A program made the position numbers and the translations under genes. A model generated the notes under the pieces. It was not told the origin of the DNA and searched no databases. It saw only the letters and a list, made by a program, of their open reading frames with translations. Below are positions 40 through 18,033 of a DNA stretch of 45,658 nucleotides, one piece after another; the first letter of the stretch is position 1, and the number at the start of each line of letters is the position of its first letter. Source of the DNA: Candidatus Peregrinibacteria bacterium (lineage in GTDB: Bacteria > Patescibacteriota > Gracilibacteria > Peribacterales > Peribacteraceae); contig JACOTD010000075.1 in NCBI GenBank assembly GCA_016178535.1, positions 1 to 45,658 of the forward strand, given 5' to 3'.

Positions 40-1056
40 TTACGACGTGGTGGAAGAAGCCGAACAGCTTCTATGCGGCATACAGAGCCATTGTCCAAAA
101 GTGGCAGGCTGCCTGAGCCGCAGGGTCAGTGAGCGGCTACCGTACGACATGTTGTTGTATCGCGCCGCCATTGCGCGGAGGCGCTTCAATTCGGTATCGA
201 CCATGTCCTCCAATTCCTGACGCTTCTTGAGCGCGGCGGCGAGTTCTTCCTGCGCTTGCAGATTCGAGGGATCTTCCTCGAGCGTGTGTTCGGCGGCGGC
301 GATCTGCGCCTGATTGTTCTGGAACTGGATCCCGATCGGACCCGACGCGACTCCCACCGGAAACTGATTGATCCCGATCGGGCCGCCCGGCGCCACCGTG
401 GAGAATCGGAAGCGACGCATCCTCTGGAGAGATCGTGGCGAGAGCACGATCTTGAGAAGTTTGCCGATGATTGTGATGAGGAACGTGAGTGTGGTTCTCA
501 TTTCCTTATCGTTCAACGCAGGAATGTCCTTTGCGTTGATCGCAGGATTGAGTAGGAGATTCCCCTTTCCATCGTTGCTGATGGCGTAACGCTCCGTCAG
601 AGCTCTCTGCTGCTGCAGATGCCTGAGCGCGAGATCCGGATCGCCGGAATTTTTGAATTCGGTCACAAGTTTCTGCTTCGCCTCGTCCTGCGTCTTGGAA
701 TCTGCGGCCAGCAACGCCGTCACAGCGGCATCGAGCGCTTTCTCCTTTTCCGGTGCAAGCTTCTTCACGTTCTCCGCGCCGCCTTCTTTCTTCTCATCAT
801 CTCCCAACTGCTTTTTCTTGCCATCGGATTCTTCTGCCATGAATGCCTTCCAAAAAGCATCCAATCCTCTTTTCAACCTCTCGACTCTGTCCTTCACCAT
901 TTTCTCCACATCTATGCTCATTGGGGTCTCCGGCGATTTCTCCGAACCTTTTCCTTCAGCAAACGGGCAGAGACGCTGCTCACCCCAAGGAATCGCGAAG
1001 GCATCGCTGCGATGACAGATGTTCATTGGAAGTGAGGGAATGTTGGTCTTTCCCAC
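40..1056 (-). CDS. hypothetical protein (charged, coiled-coil-like centre)
   Basis: Longest ORF here (338 codons). GTG at 1056, first ATG at 1026, TAA at 40-42. No family motif recognised. Competing + strand ORFs are short and low-complexity. Confidence 0.45.
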   Translation of the reverse strand: MGKTNIPSLPMNICHRSDAFAIPWGEQRLCPFAEGKGSEKSPETPMSIDVEKMVKDRVERLKRGLDAFWKAFMAEESDGKKKQLGDDEKKEGGAENVKKLAPEKEKALDAAVTALLAADSKTQDEAKQKLVTEFKNSGDPDLALRHLQQQRALTERYAISNDGKGNLLLNPAINAKDIPALNDKEMRTTLTFLITIIGKLLKIVLSPRSLQRMRRFRFSTVAPGGPIGINQFPVGVASGPIGIQFQNNQAQIAAAEHTLEEDPSNLQAQEELAAALKKRQELEDMVDTELKRLRAMAARYNNMSYGSRSLTLRLRQPATFGQWLCMPHRSCSASSTTS

Positions 1057-1095
1057 TATTGTACCAGATTTCTCATGTGTGAGCCATCGGGATCT

Positions 1096-1459
1096 GGTGT
1101 GTTTTGTTGGTGTTTTACCTCACCCCCAACCCCTCTCCTGCCTTTTATCGTTGGTCGTCTCGAAGTGTTTGGGAGTTTTCCTTCTGTACGAATGGCAGGA
1201 GAGGGGAATGTTTTGTAGGTTGTTTTGTTTCCTCTATCCCCCGTCCCCTTTCTCCGGGGGAGAAAGGGGGGGCCTTGATCATTGGAAATTCTCCCCTCCT
1301 CCATCGGAGGAGGGGTCGGGGGTGGAGGGAAAAACACAAACACTCCCCTCTCCTTCCTCTGATCCTTCAAGAATATCTTTCATTCCCGAAGAAAGGAGAA
1401 CCCAAGAAAAGGAGAGGGGCTGGGGGTGAGGTCACACATCAAAAACAAACAACAACCCC
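1096..1459. repeat. MITE-like array of four G-rich hairpin modules bounded by ~45-nt inverted repeats
   Basis: Units at 1096-1142 and 1196-1272 (inverted) and 1291-1353 and 1409-1459 (direct). The outer units are reverse complements (AGGAGAGGGG[C/T]TGGGGGTGAGGT...). Inner units carry CCCCTTTCTCC/GGAGAAAGGGG and CCCCTCCTCC/GGAGGAGGGG hairpins. Confidence 0.8.
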
Positions 1460-1465
1460 TATACT
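1460..1465 (+). promoter_or_regulatory. -10-like TATACT, 6 nt upstream of the nth start
   Basis: TATACT followed by CCCCCC, then GTG at 1472. The same hexamer and spacing recur at other genes in the window. Confidence 0.35.
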
Positions 1466-1471
1466 CCCCCC

Positions 1472-2131
1472 GTGACTCCCCGTATTTCCACCGACACTGT
1501 TCTCCAAAAGCTCGACGCGCTCCACAGGCCGCCGCGGACATTCCTCGACTGGGACACGCCCTTCCATCTGTTGATGGCGACGATCCTGAGCGCACAGTGC
1601 ACGGACAAGATGGTGAACCGCCTGAGTCCGAAGCTCTTCGAGAAGTATCGAACGCCCGAAGATCTCGCGCATGCGAAGATCGAAGAGCTCCAGCGCGACA
1701 TTCACTCCTGCGGCCACTTCCGCGTGAAGGCGAAGTACCTGAAGACCGCGAGCGCGATGCTCATTGAAAAGTTCAATGGAAAAGTCCCCGAGACGATGGA
1801 AGAGTTGCTGACGCTCCCCGGGGTGGGACGCAAGACCGCCGCCGTGATCCTCTATGCGGTCTTCAAGAAGAATGACGGCATCGCCGTGGATACGCACGTC
1901 TTCCGCGTCGCTCGCAGGCTTGGACTCTCGAACGGCAAAACACAAGCGAGCATCGAGAGGGATTTGATGGAGCAGACCCCTCGTGCGCAATGGGGCAAGC
2001 TCCACACGCTCCTCATCATGCACGGCCGGACGATCTGTACGGCGAGGAATCGAAAGTGCGGCACGTGCATGTTCTGCGAAGAGTGCCCGTCATCGTGGGT
2101 GAGGAGAAAGAAGGATTTGGCTAATGAATGA
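1472..2131 (+). CDS. nth: endonuclease III (DNA glycosylase/AP lyase)
   Basis: HhH-GPD motif LPGVGRKTAAVIL. C-terminal 4Fe-4S loop CTARNRKCGTCMFCEEC. 219 aa, GTG start. Confidence 0.9.
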   Translation: MTPRISTDTVLQKLDALHRPPRTFLDWDTPFHLLMATILSAQCTDKMVNRLSPKLFEKYRTPEDLAHAKIEELQRDIHSCGHFRVKAKYLKTASAMLIEKFNGKVPETMEELLTLPGVGRKTAAVILYAVFKKNDGIAVDTHVFRVARRLGLSNGKTQASIERDLMEQTPRAQWGKLHTLLIMHGRTICTARNRKCGTCMFCEECPSSWVRRKKDLANE

Positions 2132-2169
2132 GGAAATGTAAGTGCGAATGAATTCGCGTCTTCGTTTCC

Positions 2170-2201
2170 GGTTAGCCGCCGGTTTAAACCGGCGGCTAAC
2201 C
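2170..2201. terminator. perfect 32-nt palindrome between convergent genes (candidate bidirectional terminator)
   Basis: GGTTAGCCGCCGGTTT/AAACCGGCGGCTAACC, flanked by a second inverted pair GAATGAATTC...GAATTCATTC. Lies between the nth stop and the stop of the 2293-3552 gene. Confidence 0.55.
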
Positions 2202-2292
2202 GCAAGCGTTTTCCGGAATTCATTCCGGCGCTCTCGGAAGGACTGTCCGAGCAGTGCAGCGGTTACCGATTGCCTATCGACTCACGCTCTCC

Positions 2293-3552
2293 TCAAAACA
2301 TCAGCCACCCCGCCACACCCGTCTGAATCAGCGTGACGTTCAGTACCGCGAGACCCATGGCGCACGGGAGGCCGATGCTCGCCCAACGGCGGAACGAAAT
2401 CCCGTGGCGTTCCTTCAAGACGATGTTGCAGACGTTCCCCGGCACGAGTCCCACCCCCCACAGTGCGAGCGAAATGCCCAGCACCAGAACCAACGATTGC
2501 GGCATGCCCTTGTGGATTTCCAAGAGCCCCAGGAGCGCATTGTCCGCAACCGAGCTCACGGCATTGCCGAAGAACGCCGCGAGCGGGGGCAGATCGGCAA
2601 AGACGCGCGCGGCGACGGGCTTCGCCGCTTCTCCAAAGAGGAGCAGACCGAGAACGAAGAAGTAGAGCTTGGTCGTAGAGTGGAGAATCCGATCGAATTC
2701 ATGGGAGAAGTCATGCGCGTGTTCTTCGAATTCCTCCACGGCGTGGAGCGCCTCCTTCACTTCCATCACGTCCTTCTTCTGGGCCACGACTCTCTCGGCG
2801 CGATGCACGTCCTTGAGCATCCGTTCCTCGAGCGTCTCCGGGATGATGCGCGAGCGGGAGGCCAGGAATCCCGATGCGAAGGCGAGCGCCAGGATATTCA
2901 CGATGTAGATGCCGCCGAACGTACGCAGCAAATAGCCGCTTCCTTCTCCCAAGGTTTGCGCGATGAAGAGCGAGAGCGGTTCCCCCACGGTCGTGAGGAG
3001 CGCCGAGAGCCCGATCGCGGCGGCGTAGAGGATCACGCAGGGCGTGTAGTCGCGATGCGTCACATCCCGCAAAATGGCGAAGAAGAGCGCTCCGATCACC
3101 GCCATGACGACGACGGAGAGAGACCCGAGGCTGCCCGCGATGAGGGTCCAGAGGAACACCAGCACGGGTGGATGGATGGTGCGCGACCATCGTCGCAATC
3201 CTCGATGGAGAGGACGGCGCAGAAAGAGCAGGAGGAGCGAGAGCGAGAAGTAGCAGAGGATCAACACCCACGGTTCGAGGAGTAATAGGTGGAGACCGCT
3301 GCGTTGGCTGAGGAGAAGGGTCTGGACGAAGGCTCCCGTATCGAACTGCACGACGCCCAGGCTCAGCGAGAGCCAGAGGAGCCCCGCGCCCAGAAAGAGC
3401 ATGAAGTAGCCCAGTTGATCATCGATCCACCGGATACACATCGGCAGCACGATGAGCGCAACGAGGCTCCCGAGCATCGCGAGGCTCAGGAGTCGTACGG
3501 GAACGGTCCAGAATGGGTCCATCCGTTCGTCGGAAAATGATGAAAAGTTCAT
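2293..3552 (-). CDS. polytopic membrane protein, possibly DUF1646-like cation transporter
   Basis: Track ORF 2293-3813 trimmed to the ATG at 3552, which overlaps the amt stop as ATGA. Multiple hydrophobic segments flank a charged central loop. The family call is from memory of the architecture only. Confidence 0.6.
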   Translation of the reverse strand: MNFSSFSDERMDPFWTVPVRLLSLAMLGSLVALIVLPMCIRWIDDQLGYFMLFLGAGLLWLSLSLGVVQFDTGAFVQTLLLSQRSGLHLLLLEPWVLILCYFSLSLLLLFLRRPLHRGLRRWSRTIHPPVLVFLWTLIAGSLGSLSVVVMAVIGALFFAILRDVTHRDYTPCVILYAAAIGLSALLTTVGEPLSLFIAQTLGEGSGYLLRTFGGIYIVNILALAFASGFLASRSRIIPETLEERMLKDVHRAERVVAQKKDVMEVKEALHAVEEFEEHAHDFSHEFDRILHSTTKLYFFVLGLLLFGEAAKPVAARVFADLPPLAAFFGNAVSSVADNALLGLLEIHKGMPQSLVLVLGISLALWGVGLVPGNVCNIVLKERHGISFRRWASIGLPCAMGLAVLNVTLIQTGVAGWLMF

Positions 3553-5042
3553 CGGCCCGCCATGGCGGGCTGCGGCGATTTGCGTTCTGCATTGATCATG
3601 CTCATCGCCATATCGGTTGCCATGATGGATGGGAGAGGAGCGACGAAGTCCGGAGGGTAGCCGAGCGCGCCCATCTCCGGCATGTCCAGACCGGCAAGCT
3701 CGTCGGCGGCCGAGACGCGGAGCAAGCCGAATACGCCCAGGATCTTGAAGAACGCATACGAGAGGCCCCCAACCACAATCACGATGGACGCGACTTCCAG
3801 ACATTGCGACCAAATTTGCGTGTATCCGCCATAGAAGATGCCCGTGACAGGTCCTGTGACGCCGTTCCAGCCGGCGGTGTCCGGGTTGGCGTTGGCGAAG
3901 AGACCCACGGACAACACGCCCCAGATGCCGTTGAAGAAGTGCACAGGGACGGCCCCCACCGGATCATCGACTCTCCACTTCTCCAACATCATCGTCGCTC
4001 CACATACCCATATGCCTGCCACGATCCCGATGAGCGTCGCCGCCGCAGAGGATACGAAAGCACAGGGAGCGGTGATGGCGACGAGACCTGCGAGAATGCC
4101 GTTCACGGACATGGAAGGGTCGGGCTTCTTCGTCGGACCCAGGACCCACATGGTGAGCATGGCCGCCGTCCCTCCCGCGGCTCCCGCCATGAGCGTGTTG
4201 ACCGCCGCGATGGTGGCGAGGTTCCGCAGCCCTCCCGTGAAGCCCAGGGCCGACCCCGGGTTGAACCCGAACCAGCCGAAGAACAGGATGATCGCGCCGA
4301 GAACTCCGAGCGAGATGCTGTGGCCGGGGATGGCGTTCGCCGAGCCGTCCTTGTTGAATTTGCCGATGCGGGGTCCGAGCGCGATTGCTCCAGCCAGCGC
4401 CACGGCACCCCCGATCATGTGCACGACGCCCGATCCTGCAAAATCCACGGCACCATTTCCGAGACCCATCGTACGTCCCAAGTTCGCAAGCCACCCGCCT
4501 CCCCATACCCATCCGCCGACGAGCGGATAGATGAACATGCTGACCCACATGCCCATGAGGGCGAAACCGACGAATTTCAGACGTTCGGCCATTGCCCCGG
4601 TCGGGATGGTGGCCGCCGTGTCCATGAAGACCATCTGGAAGAGGAAGAATCCGAGCACCCCGACATTGGCTCCGAGTCCTGCGAGCATGAACCCGTTCCA
4701 TCCGAGCACCCCCGACCCGCCGAGGAGGAGCGGCTTCGTGAGCATGCCCGTCCAGTCGCCGAGCGAGGTGGGAGCGAAGGAGAACGCCTGCAGTCCGTGG
4801 ACGGCCGGGTAGGTGTAATTGACGCCGCCGAATTGCAGCGCGAAGCCCGTGAGCCAGTATCCAACGGCTCCGATGCAGAAGACCATCATATTCATCATCA
4901 TCGTATGCGCCACATTCTTCGCGCGGGTGAAGCCCGTTTCGACCAAGGCGAAACCGGCCTGCATGAAGAAGACCAGAAAGCCGGCCACGAGGAGCCAGAG
5001 GAGATTGACGGAGAAGAGGAGATCGGCTGCGGTCTTGTCCAT
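3549..5042 (-). CDS. amt: ammonium transporter (Amt family)
   Basis: Motifs FFMQAGFALVETG, VVHMIGGAVALAG, GWFGFNPGS, VHFFNGIWG. Start set at MDKTAADLL (5042). The upstream ATG at 5096 would translate through a perfect hairpin. Confidence 0.9.
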   Translation of the reverse strand: MDKTAADLLFSVNLLWLLVAGFLVFFMQAGFALVETGFTRAKNVAHTMMMNMMVFCIGAVGYWLTGFALQFGGVNYTYPAVHGLQAFSFAPTSLGDWTGMLTKPLLLGGSGVLGWNGFMLAGLGANVGVLGFFLFQMVFMDTAATIPTGAMAERLKFVGFALMGMWVSMFIYPLVGGWVWGGGWLANLGRTMGLGNGAVDFAGSGVVHMIGGAVALAGAIALGPRIGKFNKDGSANAIPGHSISLGVLGAIILFFGWFGFNPGSALGFTGGLRNLATIAAVNTLMAGAAGGTAAMLTMWVLGPTKKPDPSMSVNGILAGLVAITAPCAFVSSAAATLIGIVAGIWVCGATMMLEKWRVDDPVGAVPVHFFNGIWGVLSVGLFANANPDTAGWNGVTGPVTGIFYGGYTQIWSQCLEVASIVIVVGGLSYAFFKILGVFGLLRVSAADELAGLDMPEMGALGYPPDFVAPLPSIMATDMAMSMINAERKSPQPAMAGR

Positions 5043-5064
5043 AGGGAAGGGGGGAAATTGGTAG

Positions 5065-5084
5065 AGACGCCGCACGCGGCGTCT
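5065..5084 (-). promoter_or_regulatory. perfect 8-bp hairpin between glnA and amt (candidate attenuator or processing site)
   Basis: AGACGCCG-CACG-CGGCGTCT lies between the glnA stop (5103-5105) and the amt start (5042). Confidence 0.4.
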
Positions 5085-5102
5085 GAATGGATCCATGAAT
5101 GT

Positions 5103-6605
5103 TCACGCATCGAAATATTTGAAGAATTCATGCGCGGTGGGGCGCATGTTTTCATCATTCACCTCGGCGCGTTTTCCCTCGATGAAGGCGGTGAGGAACG
5201 CCTCGGAGAAGACGCCGCGAGAGGTGAGGAAGTCGTGATCCGCCTCGAGCGCATCGAGCGCTTCACCGAGGGTCGCGGGCGCGTGCTTGATCGCCGCGAG
5301 CTTCTCCGCCGCCATGTGGTAGAGGTTCTCGTCGGTGTGGTCGCCGGGCAGGAGCTCGCGCTCGATGCCGTCGAGGCCTGCGAGGAGGAGGGCGGCGAAG
5401 GTGAGGTAGGGATTGCAGATGGGATCCGGCAGTCGGAACTCCACGCGCTTGGTCTTGGGATTCGTGGAGTACATGGGAATGCGGATGGCGGCGGAGCGAT
5501 TGCGGGCGGAGTAGATGAGGTTCACCGGCGCCTCGAAGCCCGGCACGAGCCGCTTGTAGCTGTTGGTGGTGGGGTTGCCGAGCGCGCACAGCGCGCCAGC
5601 GTGCTTCAGGAGCCCCGCGATGTAGTGGAGCGCCATGGGGCTGAGTCCCGCGTACTCCTCACCCGCAAAGAGCGGCTTCCCCTCTTTCCAGAGACTCTGA
5701 TGGACGTGCATCCCCGAGCCGTTGTCGCCGAAGAGAGGCTTGGGCATGAAGGTCACGGTCTTCCCGTGCCGGTAGGCGACGTTGCGGAGGATGTACTTGT
5801 AGCGCATGAGGTGATCCGCCATCGTCACGAGCTCGTCCCGTTCCATATCGATCTCCGCTTGGCCGGCGGTCGCCACCTCATGGTGGAACGTCTCCACCTT
5901 GATGCCCGCACACTCGAGCTCGCGCACCATCTGACTGCGCAGATCCTGCTGCTTGTCGGCCGGCGAGGCGGGAAAGTATCCTTCTTTGTGCCGGATCTTG
6001 TATCCGAGATTGCCGCCTTCCTCCTCCCGCCCCGTGTTCCAGATCGCCTCATCGGAATCGACGCGGTAGAAGGCGGTGTTCACATCCTCCCCGTACTGCA
6101 CCGAATCGAAGATGAAGAACTCGGCCTCCGGCCCGAAGTACGCCGTGTCAGCCACAGTGCTCGATCGCAGAGCATCCATCGCCCGGTGCGCGATCGTGCG
6201 GGGACTGGAATCGAAGAGTTCGCCGGACACGGGGTCCTTCACGTCACAGAGGAATGAGATCGTCGTATCTGCTTTGAAGGCATCGATGATCGCGGTGCGC
6301 GGATCGGGCATGAGGAGCATGTCGGATTCCTCGATCTGCTTGAAGCCGCGGATGCTCGAGCCGTCGAAGCCTCCTCCGCTCCTCAGGACATCGGGGAGCT
6401 CGTGGACAGGCTTGCTCGTGTGCTGGAGTGTTCCGGGCACGTCGACGAAGGTGAGATCGAACATCGTGGCCTCGTGCTTCCTGGCGAAGGCGAGAACGTC
6501 TTCGACCGTCCTCATCTGCGGCGTGAAAGCGAGGTCCTGTCCGCCGATCGGACGTCGCAGGGAGAGGAGCTTCTTCTCGAGTTCCATCGCGGGAATCGGA
6601 TTCAT
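5103..6605 (-). CDS. glnA: glutamine synthetase type I
   Basis: Motifs FDGSSIRGF, GSGMHVHQSLW, NSYKRLVPGFEAP, AIRIP, EFRLPD. Start ambiguous: the ATG at 6605 is the first plausible one, and the ATG at 6515 gives the canonical N-terminus MRTVEDVLAF. Confidence 0.9.
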   Translation of the reverse strand: MNPIPAMELEKKLLSLRRPIGGQDLAFTPQMRTVEDVLAFARKHEATMFDLTFVDVPGTLQHTSKPVHELPDVLRSGGGFDGSSIRGFKQIEESDMLLMPDPRTAIIDAFKADTTISFLCDVKDPVSGELFDSSPRTIAHRAMDALRSSTVADTAYFGPEAEFFIFDSVQYGEDVNTAFYRVDSDEAIWNTGREEEGGNLGYKIRHKEGYFPASPADKQQDLRSQMVRELECAGIKVETFHHEVATAGQAEIDMERDELVTMADHLMRYKYILRNVAYRHGKTVTFMPKPLFGDNGSGMHVHQSLWKEGKPLFAGEEYAGLSPMALHYIAGLLKHAGALCALGNPTTNSYKRLVPGFEAPVNLIYSARNRSAAIRIPMYSTNPKTKRVEFRLPDPICNPYLTFAALLLAGLDGIERELLPGDHTDENLYHMAAEKLAAIKHAPATLGEALDALEADHDFLTSRGVFSEAFLTAFIEGKRAEVNDENMRPTAHEFFKYFDA

Positions 6606-6859
6606 ACCGGAGGGGGAAGGGAGGAGACAGGAACGAAACACGAGTTTTGTACGTATTCCCCCCAGAAGAACCAAGCGGCGTTGCGCACAATGTTTCTCCT
6701 GTTCTTCTTTTGAACAACAGAATGGATCGTGCTCCGCGCAAGACAATTTCCTTTGGCATAGCCGTATGATTGCCCCCTTTCTCGCCAAGACTTCCTCCGC
6801 ATTGTTCTCCGAGATTACAGATTGCCATCCGTTCCGATCTTCCTTCTCATCTCACTTCC

Positions 6860-7636
6860 ATGGCCAAGGACCTTCAACACATCATCGAATCGATCGGACT
6901 GCCGGAGAAGGAAGCCTCCTTGTACTTGGCGGGGTTGCAGTTGGGATCGGCCCCCGCATCAAGCTTCGCGAAGGCCGCTCGTCTCAACCGCATCACGACG
7001 TATCATCTTCTCGAACAGATGGTTCATGCGGGGCAGTTCACCGTGGTCCGCAAGCTCCGAGCGAAGTGGTACGCGCCCGTCTCGCCGGAATCGCTCGCCG
7101 TCGAGGCGCGCAAGCATGTCGAAACGTTCGAGCGAGTGCTCCCGGAACTCCGCTCCCTTCATGGCGCGCAGTACCGCAAGCCCCACGTGCGCTTCTTCGA
7201 GGGATGGGAGGGCGTGCGCCACGTGTACGACGACACGCTGACGGCGACGACCGAACTCCTGAACTTCGCCAACTCCGCGGCCGTTCGGGCATTCTGGCCG
7301 GAGTACGACCTCGAGTACGTCGCGCTGCGCGTGGAGCGTGGCATCCGCCTGCGAGGCATCGCGCCCGACGACGCTACGGGGCGGCGCGTGCACGGGGAGG
7401 ATCGCAAACGCCTGCGGGAGATCAGGCTCGTGCCGGCGAAGGATTTCGACTTCGGCAACGAGATCAACATCTACGATTACAAAGTGGCCATCTGCTCGTT
7501 TGGCACCGGCAGCCACGAAGACGTCTTCGGGGTCATCATCGAGAGCAAGGAAGTGGCCGAAACGCAGCGGCAGATTTTCGAGATGGCGTGGAGATACGCG
7601 AAGCGAGAGGGAGCGAGAGAGAAGAGAGCGCGATGA
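6860..7636 (+). CDS. TrmB-family HTH transcriptional regulator
   Basis: N-terminal winged-HTH typical of TrmB-like proteins (GLPEKEASLYLAGLQLGSAPASSFAKAARLNRITTYHLLEQM). Divergent from glnA. Start at MAKDLQ. Confidence 0.75.
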   Translation: MAKDLQHIIESIGLPEKEASLYLAGLQLGSAPASSFAKAARLNRITTYHLLEQMVHAGQFTVVRKLRAKWYAPVSPESLAVEARKHVETFERVLPELRSLHGAQYRKPHVRFFEGWEGVRHVYDDTLTATTELLNFANSAAVRAFWPEYDLEYVALRVERGIRLRGIAPDDATGRRVHGEDRKRLREIRLVPAKDFDFGNEINIYDYKVAICSFGTGSHEDVFGVIIESKEVAETQRQIFEMAWRYAKREGAREKRAR

Positions 7637-7641
7637 TGTTT

Positions 7642-7677
7642 CTTGGTACTTGGCACTTCGCTATTCGCACTTGGCGC
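7642..7677. repeat. single-armed heptad tandem repeat (CTTGGTA CTTGGCA CTTCGCT ATTCGCA CTTGGCG)
   Basis: Five tandem 7-mers immediately after the regulator stop codon. No clear complementary arm nearby. Confidence 0.7.
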
Positions 7678-7720
7678 TTTCTCCACTCATAGGACAATTG
7701 GCAGAAGCACGGATTTTTGC

Positions 7721-7726
7721 TATACT
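7721..7726 (+). promoter_or_regulatory. -10-like TATACT, 10 nt upstream of the ATG at 7737
   Basis: TATACTGAAACGAACGATG. Confidence 0.35.
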
Positions 7727-7736
7727 GAAACGAACG

Positions 7737-8093
7737 ATGGACATCGCCTTCCTCTCACCGAAACGATTCCTCCACACGGTGGGCTTCGCCGTCCTCGTGA
7801 GCGCGCTCGTCGTGGCTGTCACGGCGACTCTCGGGCGGGCGATGCTGAACCTGAGCGGGGCGGTCTCGACGGATCAGCAGCCGGATCTCAGCCTCTTCCT
7901 GCTCCTCCAGAAGAAAGGGGAAGACATCCGTCAATCAACCCTCCTGCGCACGAGTGAAACGAAGCGCGATTACCTCGTGCAGACGCAGAGAGGACCGAAA
8001 ATCGTGGAGCTGGAGAAAGGATCGCAACGTTGGTATGTGAAATTCGAAGAAGCGCTGCAGGAAGACAGGGCAACAACCGAGGGCAGTCGATAA
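7737..8093 (+). CDS. hypothetical membrane-anchored protein
   Basis: 118 aa. One N-terminal hydrophobic helix (FAVLVSALVVAVTATL) and a charged C-terminal part. This is the internal ATG of track ORF 7338-8093. Confidence 0.45.
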   Translation: MDIAFLSPKRFLHTVGFAVLVSALVVAVTATLGRAMLNLSGAVSTDQQPDLSLFLLLQKKGEDIRQSTLLRTSETKRDYLVQTQRGPKIVELEKGSQRWYVKFEEALQEDRATTEGSR

Positions 8094-8125
8094 AAAGGCA
8101 ATACATGTGGATCTTTCAGGAATTG

Positions 8126-8872
8126 TCACGAAGAACGATTTTGTCGATGACGAACAACGAGGAGCGGAAACACCACCACCGCGTTCCAGATCCTTTTCCA
8201 TCGCCGCGGCTCGAGCACAAGTCTCCAGAGCCACTCGAGGCCGAGATACTGAAAAACTCGAGGAGCGCGCGCACGTTCCCCGGCGAGAAAATCAAAGGTG
8301 CCCCCGACTCCCATCGCCACACGCACGCTTGGGAGGTCTTTCAGGTGATCGGCAATCCACAGATCCTGCGCCGGCGCGCCGAAGGCGACGAGGAGGAGGT
8401 GTGGAGATGCGGCGTTGATGCGGTCGATCATCGCCTGAGCGTCTTCCGATCGCGGTGAACCGGAGAAGGTTCCGACGATGCGCAACTCGAGATTCTTCGC
8501 GATGAGCGCCGCAGCCGCCATCGGTGCAATGCCCGGGGGCGCGCCGAGCAGGAAGACGGGATGATCCGCAGGGAGACGCGCACAGAGGGCATGGACCGTG
8601 TCGACACCGGTGACGCGCGCAGGGAGATTCTGGCCCGTGAAGCGCGCCATGAAGAGGAGACCCACACTGTCGGGGAGATTGAGCGCCGCGTGCTGGAGCA
8701 CACGACGGAAGGCGGCATTGCGGTGGGCCTCGACGAGCATCTCGCTGTTGGGAGTTGCGACGTGATGGGGGGCGGGATCTTCGAGAAGTGCCATGAGCCG
8801 CACAACGGCTTCGTGCGTCGTGACGGGATCGAGCGGAACGCCAAGGAGAGTGACGCGAGAGAGAGCAGACAT
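8126..8872 (-). CDS. WecB/TagA/CpsF-family glycosyltransferase
   Basis: Motifs LLGVPLDPVT, ATPNSEM, GVGGTFDFLAGERARAP, GLEWLWRLVLEP. Trimmed to the ATG at 8872 (MSALSRV). Confidence 0.85.
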   Translation of the reverse strand: MSALSRVTLLGVPLDPVTTHEAVVRLMALLEDPAPHHVATPNSEMLVEAHRNAAFRRVLQHAALNLPDSVGLLFMARFTGQNLPARVTGVDTVHALCARLPADHPVFLLGAPPGIAPMAAAALIAKNLELRIVGTFSGSPRSEDAQAMIDRINAASPHLLLVAFGAPAQDLWIADHLKDLPSVRVAMGVGGTFDFLAGERARAPRVFQYLGLEWLWRLVLEPRRWKRIWNAVVVFPLLVVRHRQNRSS

Positions 8873-8924
8873 TGGTCGAAAGATTAGCAGGGAATCCCCT
8901 TCCGCGGCTGAAGCGGTGGACGCT

Positions 8925-9683
8925 ATGCTCGATGCTGTGAAAGGAAGAATTCTTCGAATGTTGGCTCTGACGTCCTTGACGACGCTGTTCGCATGCACGG
9001 TGCAGGATCCGCTCTCGACCCCCGCGCCCAAGAGCTCTCTTTCCCCGACATTGCATCCATCCAGGAGTTCGTCGGCATCCACGAGACCCGAACTCGAGTA
9101 CGGTGATGCCGAAGCAGCGTCCTCGGGCAGCGCGCCCTCGCTCTCCATGGTCCCGGAGCGTCTGCTCGATTCCGGCCTGCTCGAAGTGGGCAATGCGGAT
9201 GCGCCGCTCGTGCTGCTCGGTCTCACGCACCACTCGTGCGCGTACTGCCGCGAGTTCTTTCAGACCGTTTTCCCGCGCCTCCTCTCCGAGGAGATCGCAA
9301 CGGGCAAGCTGCGGTACCAGATCGCGCTGCTGCCGATCCGAAAATACCCCGAAAGTGACATGCAGGCACGGGGACTCTTCTGCGCTGCAAAGCAAGGGAA
9401 GGGCCTCCTGATGCACCAAATGCTCTTCGAGCGCGGCGCAACGGACGAAGCGACCCTCCTCCTGCGCGCGCGGGAACTGCATCTGGAGAAGAAGGAATTC
9501 CGCGCATGCCTGGAGGCGAACGCCACGCAACTCGTGATGGCCGGGGAAGCGAGCCTGCCGGCGAGCTTGGGCGTGACGGTGGTGCCGACCTTCTTCCTCA
9601 ACGGAGAGAAATCCATCGGACTCCCGACGTACGCGGACATGCGCGGCAGGATCGGGGAGGCTCTCGCCAAGGGGAACCATTGA
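8925..9683 (+). CDS. DsbA/thioredoxin-fold lipoprotein
   Basis: Signal peptide with lipobox LTTLFAC. CAYC active-site motif. C-terminal VVPTFFLNG. Confidence 0.75.
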   Translation: MLDAVKGRILRMLALTSLTTLFACTVQDPLSTPAPKSSLSPTLHPSRSSSASTRPELEYGDAEAASSGSAPSLSMVPERLLDSGLLEVGNADAPLVLLGLTHHSCAYCREFFQTVFPRLLSEEIATGKLRYQIALLPIRKYPESDMQARGLFCAAKQGKGLLMHQMLFERGATDEATLLLRARELHLEKKEFRACLEANATQLVMAGEASLPASLGVTVVPTFFLNGEKSIGLPTYADMRGRIGEALAKGNH

Positions 9684-9692
9684 TCATCGATT

Positions 9693-9989
9693 CTACGATG
9701 AGGCGCATCGTGATGATGATCGCCCACCGACTCTCACGAGTTTGCGCCGTGACGTTGCGCCGGAGACAATGGTGATCGCGGAGCGAGGCACATTGCATTC
9801 TTTCGCAAGGAAGCGGATCAGCTCCGCGTTTGCAGCTCCATCTTCCGCAGCAGCCGCAAGGTCGATGCGAAGGCTGCCATCGTCCATGATGCCCTTCAGA
9901 TGTGTGCTCGAAGCGCCGGGGTGCGTGCGAATGGCGACCGTGATCGATCCTTCTGATGCAAGCCGTTCACGGAGATCGGGTGCGTTCAT
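9693..9989 (-). CDS. DUF167 (YggU-like) protein
   Basis: HPGASSTHLKG...DGAANAELIRFLAKE pattern. The ATG overlaps the trmD stop as ATGA. Confidence 0.7.
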   Translation of the reverse strand: MNAPDLRERLASEGSITVAIRTHPGASSTHLKGIMDDGSLRIDLAAAAEDGAANAELIRFLAKECNVPRSAITIVSGATSRRKLVRVGGRSSSRCASS

Positions 9990-10672
9990 ACGAGATGGTT
10001 CCTCCTCCACTCCTCGATCTTTGCATGATTCCCCGAAAGAAGAATGTCAGGAACGCGCATGCCGCGGAATTCTTCTGGGCGCGTGTAGTGGGGGTATTCC
10101 CTTTTTCGACTGAGCTTCTTCGAGAAACTTTCTTCATGAGCGGATTCCTCTTTCCCGAGCACTCCAGGCAGTTGGCGAGCGAGCGCATCGATGAGCACCA
10201 TGGCGGGGAGCTCCCCGCCCGTGAGCACGTAGTCGCCGATGGAAATCTCTTCATCGATCCATGTATCGATCACGCGCTGGTCGACGCCTTCGTAGTGCCC
10301 GCAGAGGAGGAGGATCCATTCGTGCTTCGTCGCGAGACGCTCGACCTCCGGCTGTGTGAGGCGCTTGCCGCGCGGAGAGAGGTACACACAAAGCGGCCCC
10401 CCAGACAGGACCCCTCCTCCTCCCCCGGAGGAGGGGACGGGGGTGGAGGCAATGGTTTCAATCGCCTTCACAACCGGCTCGGCCATCATCACCATTCCCG
10501 CCCCGCCGCCGTACGGACTGTCGTCGACTTGCCTGTGTCTCCCTCGGGCAAATGCGCGAATGTCATGCACATGAATCTCGAGGATCCTCTCTTCTTGCGC
10601 TCGCTGAAGGATGCTCTCGGTCAGAGGGCCTTGGAACATGGCCGGGAACAGGGTGAGGACATCGATGCGCAT
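9986..10672 (-). CDS. trmD: tRNA (guanine37-N1)-methyltransferase
   Basis: Motifs MRIDVLTLFPAMF, DDSPYGGGAGMVM, CGHYEGVDQRV, SIGDYVLTGGELPAMVLIDA. Carries an in-frame repeat insertion at 10411-10449. Confidence 0.9.
   Translation of the reverse strand: MRIDVLTLFPAMFQGPLTESILQRAQEERILEIHVHDIRAFARGRHRQVDDSPYGGGAGMVMMAEPVVKAIETIASTPVPSSGGGGGVLSGGPLCVYLSPRGKRLTQPEVERLATKHEWILLLCGHYEGVDQRVIDTWIDEEISIGDYVLTGGELPAMVLIDALARQLPGVLGKEESAHEESFSKKLSRKREYPHYTRPEEFRGMRVPDILLSGNHAKIEEWRRNHLV
10411..10449 (+). repeat. G-rich hairpin module embedded in frame in trmD
   Basis: CCCCTCCTCC-TCCCCC-GGAGGAGGGG-ACGGGGGTGGAGG, the same module as at 1291-1328. Read on the minus strand as STPVPSSGGGGGV. Confidence 0.8.
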
Positions 10673-10760
10673 GCACGCAGGATACCGGATTCGCCTGGGC
10701 GTTCTATGGGCAAACAGAACCGTTTTTACCGCATCCAAATGACGAAAAATGACAACCGTA

Positions 10761-11660
10761 TCACACCAAATCCCCCCACAGCGCGCTCACATCCTTCATC
10801 CCCACCTCTTCGACGCAGGTGGTCGTGACATCTTTTCGCGGAACGAGGCGATCGTAGAAGCTCGGGACGTCCTCGCGCTTGTAGAGAATACCCGTCGAGA
10901 TGCGCCTGGAGGTATCCACCGCGATCGCATGCGCACGATGGAGATCGGAGGGATCGTGCCCTTCCGCGTTTGCGTCGAAGCATCGCGCGAGGAGGTACTC
11001 ATGTGTGGCAAAATGGTTGTAGGTGGGGCAGGCCTGGAGGACGTCGACGAAGGCGAACCCGCAGCGCTGATGGAGAATGGCGGCTTTGAAGATTTCGGTG
11101 AGCTGCGGAATGTTCCCCGTGAAGCCGCGCGCGACGAACGTCGGCTCGAGCGCGAAGACGAACTCCATCGAACGCAGCGTGTGCTCCGGAATGCCGTTGG
11201 GTGAGGCGTTCATCGGCTGCTCCTGCCGCGTGAGCGCGCTTGCTTGCCCGAGCGTGAGGCCGTAATTGGCATTGTTGTGCAGGATGAATGTGATGGGATA
11301 GTTCGAACGAATGGCGTGGACGAGGTGACCGACCCCCTCGGAGAAGCTCGCGCCGTCGCCCCCGAAGGCGATGACGGGCACCTGCATATTCGCGAGCTTT
11401 GCGCCGGCGGCGAACGGCAGCACGCGCCCATGGAGCCCGTGTGCGCGGTAGCCGAGCAATTTATCCGACATGTTCCCGTGACAGCCGACGTCGTAGCAGA
11501 GGAGCACCTGCCACGGCGCGAGCTTCAGTTCCACGAGCGCTCGCTTGATCGCGGTCCACACACCGTAATCGCCGCACGCATCGCACCACGTGCACTGCGT
11601 TTGGCAGTGGTAGTCCTTCATGGAAGGACCGGAACCGGCAGTGTCGAGGGAGATGGGCAT
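10761..11660 (-). CDS. korB: 2-oxoacid:ferredoxin/flavodoxin oxidoreductase, beta (TPP-binding) subunit
   Basis: Motifs WCDACGDYG and GGDGASFSEG. 299 aa. Directly abuts the korA stop. Confidence 0.9.
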   Translation of the reverse strand: MPISLDTAGSGPSMKDYHCQTQCTWCDACGDYGVWTAIKRALVELKLAPWQVLLCYDVGCHGNMSDKLLGYRAHGLHGRVLPFAAGAKLANMQVPVIAFGGDGASFSEGVGHLVHAIRSNYPITFILHNNANYGLTLGQASALTRQEQPMNASPNGIPEHTLRSMEFVFALEPTFVARGFTGNIPQLTEIFKAAILHQRCGFAFVDVLQACPTYNHFATHEYLLARCFDANAEGHDPSDLHRAHAIAVDTSRRISTGILYKREDVPSFYDRLVPRKDVTTTCVEEVGMKDVSALWGDLV

Positions 11661-13460
11661 TCAATCAATGGTAGGAAATGACAATTTCGCGCGAATCAAT
11701 TCGATCAATTCATCCACGAAGAACGGCCGCCCGTCGTACTTCAGAATCTTCTCATTGATCTCCAGGCCGCACTCCTGGCGAATGAGCACCCCCAGCTGCC
11801 CCTGGTAATTCTGCTCCACGAGGATGATCTTCTTCGCCTTCTTCGCGAGTGCTTGGAGGCGCTCCGTCTTCAAGGGCCACAGATACGTAAAATGCAAATA
11901 GCCGATTCTCTTCCCGCCGAACTTCTCATCTGCAAGTGCATCCAACACTGTGTCCTTCGAGCTCCCCCATCCAACAATGAGACAATCCAATAATGGAGAC
12001 TCATTCGTAATTCGTCCTTTTCCATTTTCAATTTTCCAGAGTTCCGGCTCCGGCAAAGCCTGCTTCAAACTCTCCAGCTTCCGCATCCTCTTCTCCATCT
12101 GTTCCTTCGCGTTCTTGGCCGTCTCATCCACGGTGCCATCTGCATTGTGTTCGTCTCCCTGCGCGCAGTACGTGGCGGCGTTGGACCCGGGAAGCCACCG
12201 CAGCGAGATGCCGTCTTTGACGTTGGGATCGTAGCGATCCGTTCCCTTGAGTTCCTTCAACGCTGCAGGATCGGTGACGAGTTTTCCTCGCTCGACCTTG
12301 ACCTTCGTCTGATCGAAGGGAGTCTGCGTGTAGAGCGCCTCCGCGACCTGCTTGTCCGTGAGGACGATGACGCTGATCTGGAACTCCTCGGCCAGGTTGA
12401 ATGCGACGGGCATCAGATCGAATGCATCCTGACTGTCGCTCACGGCGAGCACGCACCGCGCAAACTCCCCGTGCGCGGTGTGGATCGCCATCAGGAGATC
12501 GCCCTGCGCGGTCCACGTGGGGAGGCCGGTGGCCGGCCCCGGGCGCTGCGCAAGCACGAAGACCGTTGGGTTTTCGAGGATGCCGTTCAAGGAAAGCGTC
12601 TCGCTCATGAGGTCGAAGCCTCCACCCGAGGTCGCGGTGAGCGCGCGCGCGCCCATGAACATCGCTCCGGTGACGATCTGCGCCGCTGTGATCTCGTCCT
12701 CCGCCTGCTTGAGAACCATGCCCGTCTGGTTCTGCAGATCGGCAATGAAGGAGAGGAGCGGACTCGACGGCGTCATCGGATACCCGGCGTACAGACGAAC
12801 GCCAGCGTGCATGGCGCCGAGCCCCATCGCCTGGCTTCCGGTCACGAGCAGGTGATCCTTCCAGACGGGATCGGAGGATGGGAGTGTGACGGAGACACGA
12901 CCGGCCGCAGGATCCGTGTACGAGAATCCTTCCTCGATGCACTTCATGTTGAGCTCCAGGAGATTCTTCTTCTTGGCGAACCGTTCGCCGACGAGCGCTT
13001 TGAGCTCGTCTTTGTCCTGTCCGAGCGCGGCCCACAGGAACGCGGCCAGGAGGACGTTGCCGAGGATCGGTTTGGCTCCGAGTCTCTTGAGGATTTCCTC
13101 GAGCGGGATCGCGATGACGGTACTCTTCCGCGAGCGGAGGAGCTTCTGATCTTCCGGAGAGAATTTCCACTCGGGTGTGAGGTGGATGAGCACTCCGCTC
13201 TCCTTCACATCCGCGAGGTTATGCTCGAGGCCGTGGTGATTGAGCGCCATGACCGCGTTGACCTTCGTCTCCGCGCTGCGGACGCGATCGTTGCTGCAAT
13301 CGAGCTGGTAGGACGCATGGCCGCCCTTGATGAGGGAGGGATACTCGCGATAACCGAACACGCAGTACCCCGCGCGCTTGAGCCCCTTGGCCACGATCTC
13401 CCCGATCGAGTTGATGCCCTGGCCGGATGCGCCGACGATTTTGAGGGAGATGCGTGTCAT
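11661..13460 (-). CDS. korA: 2-oxoacid:ferredoxin/flavodoxin oxidoreductase, fused gamma-alpha subunit
   Basis: 599 aa. N-terminal gamma-like domain (GASGQGINSIG), then alpha-domain motifs GYPMTPSSPLL and ENPTVFVLAQRPGPATGLPT. Confidence 0.9.
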   Translation of the reverse strand: MTRISLKIVGASGQGINSIGEIVAKGLKRAGYCVFGYREYPSLIKGGHASYQLDCSNDRVRSAETKVNAVMALNHHGLEHNLADVKESGVLIHLTPEWKFSPEDQKLLRSRKSTVIAIPLEEILKRLGAKPILGNVLLAAFLWAALGQDKDELKALVGERFAKKKNLLELNMKCIEEGFSYTDPAAGRVSVTLPSSDPVWKDHLLVTGSQAMGLGAMHAGVRLYAGYPMTPSSPLLSFIADLQNQTGMVLKQAEDEITAAQIVTGAMFMGARALTATSGGGFDLMSETLSLNGILENPTVFVLAQRPGPATGLPTWTAQGDLLMAIHTAHGEFARCVLAVSDSQDAFDLMPVAFNLAEEFQISVIVLTDKQVAEALYTQTPFDQTKVKVERGKLVTDPAALKELKGTDRYDPNVKDGISLRWLPGSNAATYCAQGDEHNADGTVDETAKNAKEQMEKRMRKLESLKQALPEPELWKIENGKGRITNESPLLDCLIVGWGSSKDTVLDALADEKFGGKRIGYLHFTYLWPLKTERLQALAKKAKKIILVEQNYQGQLGVLIRQECGLEINEKILKYDGRPFFVDELIELIRAKLSFPTID

Positions 13461-13470
13461 GGGATGAAAG

Positions 13471-13536
13471 GCGAATGGCGAGTTGCGAGTTACGAATCAT
13501 TCGTCACTCGTAACTCGTAATTCGTAATTCGTAATT
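13471..13536. repeat. heptad-repeat hairpin (GCGAATG/CGAGTTA/CGAATC | ATTCGTC/ACTCGTA/ATTCGTA...)
   Basis: The left arm lies in the flavodoxin-korA spacer. The right arm encodes the last ~10 codons of flavodoxin. CGAGTTACGAA pairs with TTCGTCACTCG with one mismatch. Confidence 0.85.
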
Positions 13537-13998
13537 TCCTTGTACAGTTTTCATCAACTCCTCGCCCCAGTGCTTCACTTTCTCCTCCTGCCCATACGGC
13601 TCATTGACGATCGTGAGCATCGGGATGATTTCCACGCCATGGTGTTCTGCGACGAAGGATTGCAGATGCGCCCCCGCCCCCGCCGTGTAGAAGTACCGAT
13701 CATCCCCCAGCGCGATGAGGGCGACCTTCCTGCCCGTCAGATCGACATCGTTCGCGCGATCACGAAGCAGAGCGAACATGTGCGGATTGAGCTGCCCTTC
13801 CTGCCCGCCCGTGTTCCAGGTGGAAGAGGCGAGCAAGAGCACATCGCCCGCGAGGAGATCCGCCGCTTGGGCTTCCTCCGCCCGCTTCACGAGAAGCGTC
13901 CATGTCGCGAGATCGCGGCGCAGCAGATCCGTGAGCAGACCGACCACGTACTCCGTGTGACCGCTCGTGGAGGCCTCGATGATCTGCAGAGAAGGCAC
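13504..13998 (-). CDS. flavodoxin
   Basis: FMN phosphate loop STSGHTEYV, then LLASSTWNTG. 164 aa, GTG start. The C-terminal NYELRITSYE is encoded by the repeat arm. Confidence 0.8.
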   Translation of the reverse strand: MPSLQIIEASTSGHTEYVVGLLTDLLRRDLATWTLLVKRAEEAQAADLLAGDVLLLASSTWNTGGQEGQLNPHMFALLRDRANDVDLTGRKVALIALGDDRYFYTAGAGAHLQSFVAEHHGVEIIPMLTIVNEPYGQEEKVKHWGEELMKTVQGNYELRITSYE

Positions 13999-14005
13999 GG
14001 AGCCG

Positions 14006-14011
14006 ATTGTA
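14006..14011 (-). promoter_or_regulatory. -10-like TACAAT, 7 nt upstream of the flavodoxin GTG
   Basis: The minus strand reads CTGTACAATCGGCTCCGTG. Confidence 0.35.
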
Positions 14012-14210
14012 CAGCATGGACATGGTGTCCCGGAATCACGGGGGATGTTTTCGCAGTTTTTTTATCGCCTCATTGCTTCGCTTCCTTGCGCAGGGCTTCC
14101 TCCATGACGCGCATGATGGCATGGTCTCTCGCAATGCTGTCGTCGTATTGTTGGAACGTGACCTCGAGAATGCGGGATGAACCGTCTTTTCCCTGCTGTT
14201 TGCTGCGTCG

Positions 14211-14240
14211 TCGAAAACCCAACGGTCTTCGTGCTTGCGC
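14211..14240 (+). repeat. exact 30-nt inverted copy of korA coding sequence (12548-12577)
   Basis: TCGAAAACCCAACGGTCTTCGTGCTTGCGC equals the reverse complement of 12548-12577 (korA codons for ENPTVFVLAQ). The match ends abruptly at both edges. Confidence 0.95.
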
Positions 14241-14513
14241 GCTTGGCGATCCTTCTCCTCTCGTTAGAGTGTGTGGACCGCCTGCCGCAGCGCTGTGGTT
14301 TCCGGCATCGGATGTCCTTGCGGGTTCCTCAACGCCTCGGTGGCCTGCCGGAGAATGTTTCTCTCAGGCTCGACTTTCGGCCGATCGAGTGCGGAGCGGT
14401 CCATAGAGCAGATGGGAAACGTTGATGCGATTGTACAGGACAAAAGTCTCCCACTTCCAATTCCCCTCTTGGCGCCTCCGACGATCGAATTTTCGAAGAT
14501 GCGACATTTCCTG

Positions 14514-14519
14514 TATACT
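14514..14519 (+). promoter_or_regulatory. -10-like TATACT, 8 nt upstream of the ACS ATG
   Basis: TGTATACTGTAAGGAAATG. Confidence 0.4.
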
Positions 14520-14527
14520 GTAAGGAA

Positions 14528-16603: not shown

Positions 16604-16659
16604 GAAAATTGAACCTTGATTCATCGCTCGAAACAGTCTCATACATACACCAAAACACC

Positions 16660-16685
16660 GCAGGCAAGTATGCCTGCTCCTCAGG
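16660..16685 (+). repeat. GCAGGCA-AGTA-TGCCTGC hairpin element, copy A
   Basis: 7-bp stem, AGTA loop and trailing TCCTCAGG. Related to copies at 27130-27157 and 38468-38496, with an A/T compensatory pair in the stem. Confidence 0.8.
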
Positions 16686-16760
16686 ATGCAAAAAAATGTA
16701 GAACCTGGGGAGCGGCCTTACTGGCCGCGGTTGAAACAAGATGTACAAAACCAATTCTCA

Positions 16761-16940
16761 TCATTCTTCATCATGCTCGAGAGGGTCTGCAATCACCCGA
16801 AGAGCAAGAACCTGAACGTGGGAGACTGCTTCATGCTAGCTTGCACCGTATGCGAGAACGCCGGGCAAGACCGGCAATTCGGCGATCCAACGGCCGTCAT
16901 CCTCCTGTTCCAATTCGATGACAAGGTTTTTGAATGGCAT
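16761..16940 (-). pseudogene. HicB-like (UPF0150) antitoxin gene with an in-frame TAG
   Basis: MPFKNLVIELEQEDDGRWIAELPVLPGVLAYGAS-TAG(16836-16838)-HEAVSHVQVLALRVIADRLEHDEE-TGA. Both halves together match the UPF0150/HicB N-domain pattern. No hicA seen nearby. Confidence 0.55.
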
Positions 16941-16946
16941 GGATAT

Positions 16947-16952
16947 AGTATA
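16947..16952 (-). promoter_or_regulatory. -10-like TATACT, 6 nt upstream of the HicB-like ATG
   Basis: The minus strand reads CCTATACTATATCCATG. Confidence 0.3.
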
Positions 16953-17055
16953 GGACATTCGACGTGTCTCTGCCACCATTTTATTCAAAGCGTATCTCGT
17001 GCTCGTTAGCGGAGACAGGAGTCATGATCGCGGATGTGAAGGGTATCGTTGAGTA

Positions 17056-17129: not shown

Positions 17130-17147
17130 TCCAGTATTCTACGATCC

Positions 17148-17969: not shown

Positions 17970-18033
17970 AATTATTCTCTGATAGGGAAGAATTTTGACT
18001 TCCGCGCGATCGCTCTCTACCCTCCGTTCTCGT

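Follow-up and report, generated by a model that had tools for sequence, protein, structure and literature searches.

Repeats of the class II intrastrand triplex type upstream of nth in an uncultivated Peregrinibacteria genome

The locus and its four modules

The analysis described here concerns 45,658 nucleotides from a Candidatus Peregrinibacteria bacterium (assembly GCA_016178535.1, contig JACOTD010000075.1, positions 1 to 45,658 of the forward strand), a stretch referred to throughout as the window, and in particular the repeat array that lies immediately upstream of its nth gene. The divergent intergenic region at 1057-1471 separates a minus-strand open reading frame (ORF; 40-1056), for which no Pfam hit was obtained, from nth (1472-2131), which encodes an HhH-GPD domain and whose GTG at 1472 is the earliest start codon available downstream of an in-frame stop. 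Most of this region is occupied by the array (1096-1459, 364 bp), which is made up of four modules and one 23-nt spacer. It is a triplex-repeat type known from Escherichia coli that is met here in an uncultivated Peregrinibacteria genome: in every module, the G-rich box that follows the hairpin is the 3' stem arm read backwards, with each G kept as G and each A either kept as A or replaced by T.

An earlier reading of the letters (the original prediction) had described four hairpin modules, two inverted and then two direct, with A/C-rich tails, and the sequence at 1096-1459 agrees with that description. Read in the order hairpin, G box and tail, modules A and B are inverted (minus strand), and modules C and D follow in direct orientation (plus strand). 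The main feature missed by that reading is the mirror relation of the G box to the 3' arm. In the list below, Y denotes the C/T arm, R the G/A arm and H the mirror arm, while triads and mismatches are those reported by a triplex finder set to accept a Watson-Crick stem of 8 nt or more without mismatch, a 3' arm of purines only, no more than one mismatch in the third arm and a second loop of 1-6 nt.

1096-1206, minus strand: module A, subtype 1 with a long loop, from own-sequence reading, repeat search and triplex finder (10 triads, 0 mismatches); Y 1206-1194 CCCCTCTCCTGCC, loop 1193-1143, R 1142-1130 GGCAGGAGAGGGG, second loop 1129-1127 (ttG), H 1126-1117 GGGGTGAGGT, A/C-rich tail 1116-1096.
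1207-1269, minus strand: module B, subtype 3 (11 triads, 0 mismatches), near-identical to copy F described below; Y 1269-1259 CCCCTTTCTCC, loop 1258-1256 (ccc), R 1255-1245 GGAGAAAGGGG, second loop 1244-1242 (acG), H 1241-1231 GGGGATAGAGG, tail 1230-1207.
1270-1292, no strand: doublet spacer of 23 nt, GGGCCTTGATCATTGGAAATTCT, which joins B and C head-to-head; the whole doublet spans 1207-1344.
1293-1344, plus strand: module C, subtype 2 (10 triads, 0 mismatches); Y 1293-1302 CCCCTCCTCC, loop 1303-1305 (atc), R 1306-1315 GGAGGAGGGG, second loop 1316-1318 (tcG), H 1319-1328 GGGGTGGAGG, tail 1329-1344.
1345-1459, plus strand: module D, subtype 1 with a long loop (11 triads, 1 mismatch), orthologous in a sister species from 1409 onward; Y 1345-1355 CCCCTCTCCTT, loop 1356-1408, R 1409-1419 AAGGAGAGGGG, second loop 1420-1422 (ctG), H 1423-1433 GGGGTGAGGTC, tail 1434-1459.
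1460-1474, plus strand: TATACT (1460-1465), then 6 nt to the nth GTG (1472); candidate -10 element, conserved at the sister locus L313.

The stem of A is a perfect 13 bp with a first loop of about 50 nt, and those of B, C and D are 11, 10 and 11 bp with first loops of 3, 3 and 53 nt, respectively. The repeat search bore out the perfect hairpins of the inner pair (B and C) as well as the stems of D and A (for A, 16 nt at 94%), which it placed around loops of 45-53 nt. The regular expression first offered for the G box turned out to be approximate, as the length of the box varies by subtype (TGAGG, TGGAGG and ATAGAGG). The statement that the inner hairpins differ while both their arms covary holds, the stem arms changing together between subtypes, and the outer inverted repeat of about 45 nt also exists (1095-1139 against 1410-1454, 45 nt at 82% in the repeat search). 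The bare pattern GGGGNNGGGGG occurs seven times in the window against 0.43 expected, four of the seven being inside the array, and the array folds far better than its shuffles (z = -6.9).

ORFs of 104-136 amino acids cross the array on both strands (window 1019-1475), with translations such as ...PSPFSGGERGG..., and repeats of this kind can yield spurious hypothetical proteins.

The mirror arm and its covariation

Over the whole window, the triplex finder returned six modules (A to D and two further copies, E and F), all of which have 10-11 triads and a second loop of 3 nt, with no mismatch in five, together with one overlapping artefact; it found no match in 100 dinucleotide-preserving shuffles of the window. 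The arms Y/R/H read CCCCTCTCC / GGAGAGGGG / GGGGTGAGG in subtype 1, CCCCTCCTCC / GGAGGAGGGG / GGGGTGGAGG in subtype 2 and CCCCTTTCTCC / GGAGAAAGGGG / GGGGATAGAGG in subtype 3, and all three arms change jointly among the three subtypes. The succession of a C/T arm, a G/A arm and a mirror arm therefore constitutes a class II purine-motif intrastrand triplex motif.

Because circularity was to be avoided, hairpins were also gathered first, from all the DNA collected, the requirements being a stem of 9 bp or more without mismatch and a purine-only 3' arm, and instances selected by our own pattern were excluded. This gave 137 hairpin loci with 59 distinct R arms, among which a mirror arm with at most one mismatch is present in 113 and a perfect one in 85; in all but one locus the mirror arm is one-sided. 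When each hairpin was instead paired with the downstream sequence of another hairpin type, 4% were perfect and 25% had at most one mismatch. In the same set, the A nearest the second loop is answered in the third arm by T more often than by A, while the next A is mostly retained. The negative background consisted of 80 nth loci (about 0.5 Mb) from unrelated bacteria, chosen as Nth relatives of at most 52% identity from a metagenome scan, and across it one qualifying hairpin and no triplex motif were found.

Other rules for the third arm were tried and rejected. A direct repeat is perfect in just 16 of the 137 loci, compared with 85 under the mirror rule, and a third arm that would pair with the C/T arm by Watson-Crick bonds in place of the G/A arm, as a switch might, incurs 2 mismatches and 1 wobble per 9-11 positions in every subtype, where the mirror rule is perfect.

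The ITxF definition of class II motifs places a pyrimidine arm, a purine arm and a reverse-Hoogsteen arm in 5' to 3' order on one strand, with a stem of 6-15 nt and loops of 1-6 nt (PMC4666352). The order Y-R-H, the antiparallel third arm and the G.G-C, A.A-T and T.A-T triads are found in all six window modules. Under the ITxF limits, which also allow at most one mismatched triad, modules B, C, E and F fall within range, their stems being 10-11 nt, their first loops 3-6 nt and their second loops 3 nt.

BoxC repeats have been known since the 1990s. Hoyne and Maher (2000, 2002) came upon the BoxC repeat of E. coli anew, as the PIT element, and Holder et al. (2015) renamed it TM_ECO, as related in the latter account (PMC4666352). 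The TM_ECO consensus, 5'-CCCTCNCCC N3-6 GGGNGAGGG N3 GGGNGAGGG, is a class II G/C-rich intrastrand triplex motif that forms a triplex in vitro by circular dichroism (CD) and nuclear magnetic resonance (NMR), a quadruplex being excluded, and polymerase arrest in vitro has been reported for it (PMC4666352). It is intergenic, forms at five loci inverted pairs set close together, each made up of one type A and one type B, and is linked to locally elevated sequence variability; the published case thus joins in vitro folding by CD and NMR to abundance relative to scrambled genomes and to locus variability, and G/C-rich class II motifs are also described as abundant in cyanobacteria (PMC4666352).

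The likeness of the present modules to the BoxC/PIT/TM_ECO repeats is extensive. Both have the order C/T arm, loop, G/A arm, 3-nt loop and mirror G/A/T arm, with A-to-T substitution in the third arm and stems of similar length (9 nt there, 10-11 nt here), and both are multi-copy, mostly intergenic, found as close inverted pairs of two unlike types and associated with variable or rearranged loci. They differ in the arms themselves, CCCTCNCCC there against CCCCTCTCC, CCCCTCCTCC and CCCCTTTCTCC here, and in the host, which here is a bacterium of the candidate phyla radiation with a small genome. The present modules moreover end in A/C-rich tails of about 20 nt, their doublets have a defined spacer of 23 nt, two of the modules have loops of about 50 nt, and, whereas TM_ECO was reported to be always intergenic, copies are found here in frame in trmD and, in a sister genome, in murD. 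A regular expression for the TM_ECO consensus gave 0 matches on both strands of the window. Given the shared architecture and the unmatched consensus, the modules are therefore assigned to the class II intrastrand triplex repeats and not to TM_ECO itself; it is highly probable that they belong to this class and that their three-arm architecture is maintained and not accidental.

Dispersed copies, the doublet unit and the break in synteny at nth

The modules are not unique to this contig, as further copies occur in the window, on IMG/VR contigs and in other genomes. The two additional window copies are as follows.

10411-10449, plus strand: copy E, subtype 2, core only, in frame in trmD; Y 10411-10420, R 10427-10436, H 10440-10449.
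35196-35256, plus strand: copy F, subtype 3 with tail; Y 35196-35206, R 35210-35220, H 35224-35234, tail to about 35256.

Within trmD (minus-strand gene 9986-10738), copy E encodes the variable-loop peptide ...ASTPVPSSGGGGG... and has the same letters in three independent assemblies of the species. Relatives of TrmD and Nth place the organism in Candidatus Peregrinibacteria / Peribacteria. The comparison drew on a metagenome-assembled genome (MAG) of the same species, GCA_016200245.1, and on one of a sister species, GCA_016201685.1 (JACQCJ01), whose Nth is 90% identical. In the sister-species trmD (L315 1020-1260), the position of copy E holds an unrelated 72-nt loop with a 14-nt tandem duplication. 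Peptides of the form SPSP...GEG or PSPRRGRG, which resemble translated modules, are found in the TrmD loops of several other Peribacteria. Copy F occupies the gap that separates a GT2/GtrA gene (35257-36483, minus strand), on the side of its stop codon, from the next gene on that strand, with a remnant of the doublet spacer upstream of it.

A BLAST comparison of the array with the collected loci matched B, the spacer and C (1207-1344, about 138 nt) to 10 or more non-syntenic sites of JACQCJ01, the identity being 84-92% over 100-138 nt. In alignment, this doublet consists of a G/T-rich tail of about 20-28 nt, an inverted subtype-3 module, a 23-nt spacer in two variants, a direct subtype-2 module and an A/C-rich tail; beyond the tails, the sequences at the JACQCJ01 sites are unrelated. 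The tails keep their composition (AAAC-like) while varying in sequence and length. At one site, L141, modules A, B and C are found without D, beside a long unrelated ORF (789-2225) and away from nth, and the long loop of A is kept there. At another, L148 (JACQCJ010000008.1, 41-589), a whole doublet of the B and C type with its tail lies in frame in the C-terminal domain of MurD; the insert is flanked by ...REAIAAN and IPIVLLSTASPSYGMF..., and the sequence with the insert removed matches TIGR01087 murD (E = 5e-8). Assignment of the L148 copy to trmD, by a similar flanking peptide, had been considered and was discarded, the ORF being instead the C-terminal part of murD. A BLAST search of the doublet against plasmids, with the low-complexity filter on, gave no match.

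Small structured multi-copy elements tolerated in frame within proteins are familiar from the Rickettsia palindromic elements. The in-frame copies here are alike in lying in loops of essential proteins (trmD, and murD in JACQCJ01), with no sequence relation between the two.

Dispersal extends far beyond this lineage. A degenerate core pattern was found on at least 120 IMG/VR contigs, mostly as the subtype-1 core with a 4-7 nt loop, and the exact subtype-3 core GGAGAAAGGGGNNGGGGGATAGAGG in at least 109 stretches of species-representative genomes. Among the matches listed, the subtype-3 hosts include an Oscillatoriaceae cyanobacterium with dozens of copies, other cyanobacteria, at least seven Peregrinibacteria or Peribacteria MAGs and other Patescibacteria, as well as Flavobacteriales, Bacteroidia (one a closed 4.2-Mb chromosome), the isolate Runella limosa DSM 17973, Chloroflexi, Anaerolineae, Fimbriimonadaceae (Armatimonadota), Desulfobulbus (Desulfobacterota) and Leptospirales. 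The subtype-3 arms are letter-identical across these phyla, while both loops and both flanks are lineage-specific and repeated within a lineage, which rules out contamination. The cyanobacterial MAG DVDU01 holds dozens of subtype-3 copies with a conserved 45-nt 3' flank, as well as a tandem array of four copies with a 60-nt period, and one IMG/VR contig holds seven subtype-1 copies, for the most part spaced at about 72 nt; L177 5374-5578 and L097 1748-2830 are examples of loci with such copies.

Comparison of the nth upstream region with its counterpart in the sister species reveals where synteny ends. At JACQCJ01 locus L313, homology starts exactly at window position 1409, the first base of the D purine arm, and continues through nth at 88%; in the sister, the purine arm of D persists in decayed form, followed by third arm, tail and TATACT, and over the 44 nt of these last three the identity is about 91%. 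The pyrimidine arms of A, B, C and D are all absent there, and different ORFs lie upstream of nth at L313, with no homology to the window ORF 40-1056. The DNA flanking the sister nth (the AdoHcyase region, L313 1569-5598) corresponds to window positions of about 26999-28578, in inverted orientation. The start of homology within D, the different neighbours and the inverted mapping thus place the array at a rearrangement breakpoint. The 3' half of D is old; the remainder of the array is either confined to this species or was lost in the sister. The second breakpoint lies near a local dip in G+C (0.50 at 26-27 kb), and the sister intergenic region (L313 4805-5814) holds two unannotated automatic gene calls of 225 and 62 amino acids without Pfam hits.

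TATACT (1460-1465) begins directly after the array, and not 1 nt beyond its end as first described. In sister locus L313 it is kept, with an ATG 9 nt later. The spacing fits a candidate -10 element of a putatively leaderless or near-leaderless nth mRNA. A promoter scan of 850-1650 found no sigma-70-like pair and no matching -35, and a terminator scan found one weak terminator-like site at 1085-1099, on the left edge of the array. Because the upstream gene is divergent and the array reaches up to TATACT, 6 nt from the GTG, the nth promoter must overlap the array. The proposal that the array provides promoter context for nth thus stands as far as this position and the conservation from the D purine arm to TATACT are concerned, while the sigma-70-like pair is missing; as no -35 partner was found, the promoter role is one of position and conservation only.

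The nth gene probably begins at GTG 1472, from which the N-terminus aligns with the 232-residue sister protein, while the public record starts from an internal ATG (185 residues, P0122). For nth, amtB and the UDP-glucose dehydrogenase gene, the products of the ORFs as delimited here had no exact counterpart among recorded genes. Two contigs belonging to one NCBI MAG match the window, at 1572-5688 (L314, 98.9% identity) and 5304-20672 (L001, 99.99%), and the former begins 113 nt beyond the array on its downstream side. Taken together, this points to a bin of mixed strains and perhaps to an assembly that the repeats interrupted. The window also holds an 88-nt tRNA (25244-25331, minus strand), a family X DNA polymerase (pol beta-like) gene (25423-26364) and a gene for a HEPN-domain protein (32919-33344), none with an apparent link to the repeats.

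Weighing the explanations

The preferred explanation, to which we assign a probability of about 0.7, is that each module is a class II purine-motif intrastrand triplex element of a dispersed, non-autonomous family of the BoxC, PIT or TM kind, and that the array is a cluster of such modules. The G-rich strand would become single-stranded in the lagging-strand template, in a transcription bubble or upon supercoil-driven extrusion; the first two arms would then pair by Watson-Crick bonds, and the third arm would fold back antiparallel into the major groove to form reverse-Hoogsteen G.G-C, A.A-T and T.A-T triads. In this Peregrinibacteria lineage, the modules are characterised by A/C-rich (AAAC-like) tails, by head-to-head doublets of two subtypes and by a tendency to pile up in clusters, and the array represents one doublet (B and C) flanked by the long-loop subtype-1 modules A and D. 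Its relation to nth is positional, the oldest module, D, having become the DNA just upstream of the nth -10 element.

We infer that these sequences would fold like their E. coli relative and that the folding may matter in the cell. That the fold forms transiently in single-stranded cellular DNA and causes polymerase stalling and rearrangement is a more tentative proposition, with a chance of roughly one in three, because it draws on the E. coli relative and on one breakpoint.

Several points weigh against the preferred explanation. Modules A and D exceed the first-loop limit of ITxF (53-57 nt against 1-6 nt), which would weaken folding. ViennaRNA cannot model triplexes, so that the computed folds cover hairpins only and the triplex is one we infer for these sequences. 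In vivo footprinting with dimethyl sulfate saw no TM_ECO triplex, and no effect on promoter, terminator or conjugation was observed (PMC4666352). The link to rearrangement stems from a single breakpoint. Finally, the existence of discrete subtypes that are identical across phyla suggests sequence-specific recognition by some factor, for which structure alone would be insufficient.

This last point bears on a different understanding of the family, in which the triplex core (about 37-40 nt, in a few discrete subtypes) would be a unit propagated or regenerated by a conserved sequence- and structure-specific mechanism. It is raised because the subtype-3 core is letter-identical across phyla with lineage-specific loops and flanks, because a core-only copy lies in frame in trmD and because the family thrives in a genome region where no transposase was seen. 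We regard it as unlikely; if it were true, mobile DNA would gain a new class, one whose defining trait is the folding into a triple helix.

A related possibility, which we consider distinctly unlikely, is that the modules are REP- or REPIN-like and are recognised as folded single-stranded DNA by a RAYT or another HUH/Y1 transposase, the third arm serving for recognition or as a guide and not for a triplex. The present repeats resemble REP, BIME and REPIN elements in being short, palindromic and non-autonomous units that form intergenic clusters and inverted doublets of non-identical types, the head-to-head doublets of two subtypes having a short spacer as in REPINs and BIMEs, and the discrete subtypes that are sequence-identical across phyla while loops and flanks differ point to sequence-specific recognition. 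However, REPs lack the third mirror arm, and the window contains no RAYT, HUH or Y1 gene nor any other transposase, whereas REPs, BIMEs and REPINs are mobilised by RAYT. A mirror repeat would be meaningless for protein recognition of duplex DNA, while it is what a purine-motif triplex needs, including the tolerance of A-to-T changes. BLAST searches by the authors of PMC4666352 gave no link of the motif to mobile genetic elements.

The original prediction had likened the 364 bp to a miniature inverted-repeat transposable element (MITE) with the outer repeats as termini; a single MITE bounded by these 45-nt repeats would be mobilised in trans by a DDE transposase encoded elsewhere. In favour of it are a fitting size, the 45-nt outer inverted repeat at 82% and a fold of the region as a whole that is far more stable than those of shuffles, and MITEs are likewise small, structured, multi-copy and non-coding. 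The 364-bp unit is, however, nowhere repeated whole: what recurs is the single module and the 138-nt B and C doublet, A, B and C occur without D at L141, and the orthologous sister site has just the 3' half of D. The outer repeats are two modules of the same subtype in opposite orientation and, unlike transposase-binding termini, the tails are of low complexity and differ from copy to copy in sequence as well as in length; conservation lies in the triplex core, not at the ends. Target-site duplications were found neither at 1095/1460 nor around 11 doublet copies, the low-complexity tails blurring the boundaries. The absence of a transposase was correctly noted, since about 25 window ORFs and the gene calls of same-species contigs contain housekeeping domains only and no transposase, integrase or reverse transcriptase domain, and no cognate autonomous transposon with matching ends lies within the 45.7-kb window. 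As single modules and the doublet are the recurring units, the array is therefore a BIME-like cluster of modules and not one mobile element; the single-MITE interpretation is largely refuted and very improbable.

At the RNA level, the hairpins could stabilise or attenuate transcripts, or form a small RNA, and so affect nth or the divergent gene, an idea with at best a faint chance of being correct. These are strong, GC-rich hairpins, their C/T and G/A arms look like anti-Shine-Dalgarno and Shine-Dalgarno sequences, and copy F lies just after a stop codon. Against this, Rfam 15, in gathering-threshold and E-value modes, returned no credible family for the array, with no family at threshold and sole matches, far below it, to microRNA hairpin models. 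No U tract follows any hairpin on either strand, no terminator is predicted inside the array, and modules occur in both orientations and inside coding sequence. PIT elements showed activity neither as promoters nor as terminators, and RNA is reported not to adopt purine-motif triplexes (PMC4666352). G-quadruplexes formed by the G runs and regulating nth, as had also been suggested, deserve next to no probability: there are several runs of four or five G and many two-tetrad patterns are possible, but neither strand of 1096-1459 has a canonical (G3+ N1-7)x4 motif, one G-rich arm is sequestered by the perfectly complementary C-rich arm, the mirror covariation of the arms would be left unexplained, and the relative TM_ECO is a triplex by NMR, with a quadruplex excluded (PMC4666352).

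For the organism, the consequence for nth is probably limited to promoter-proximal DNA derived from an old module, and arrays of this kind sit at synteny breakpoints. For the family, the natural three-way covariation between subtypes is new and provides comparative evidence for a maintained three-arm architecture. Also new are the defined doublet unit, whose spacer and tails make it traceable between sister genomes, and the copies that are read through in frame in essential genes.

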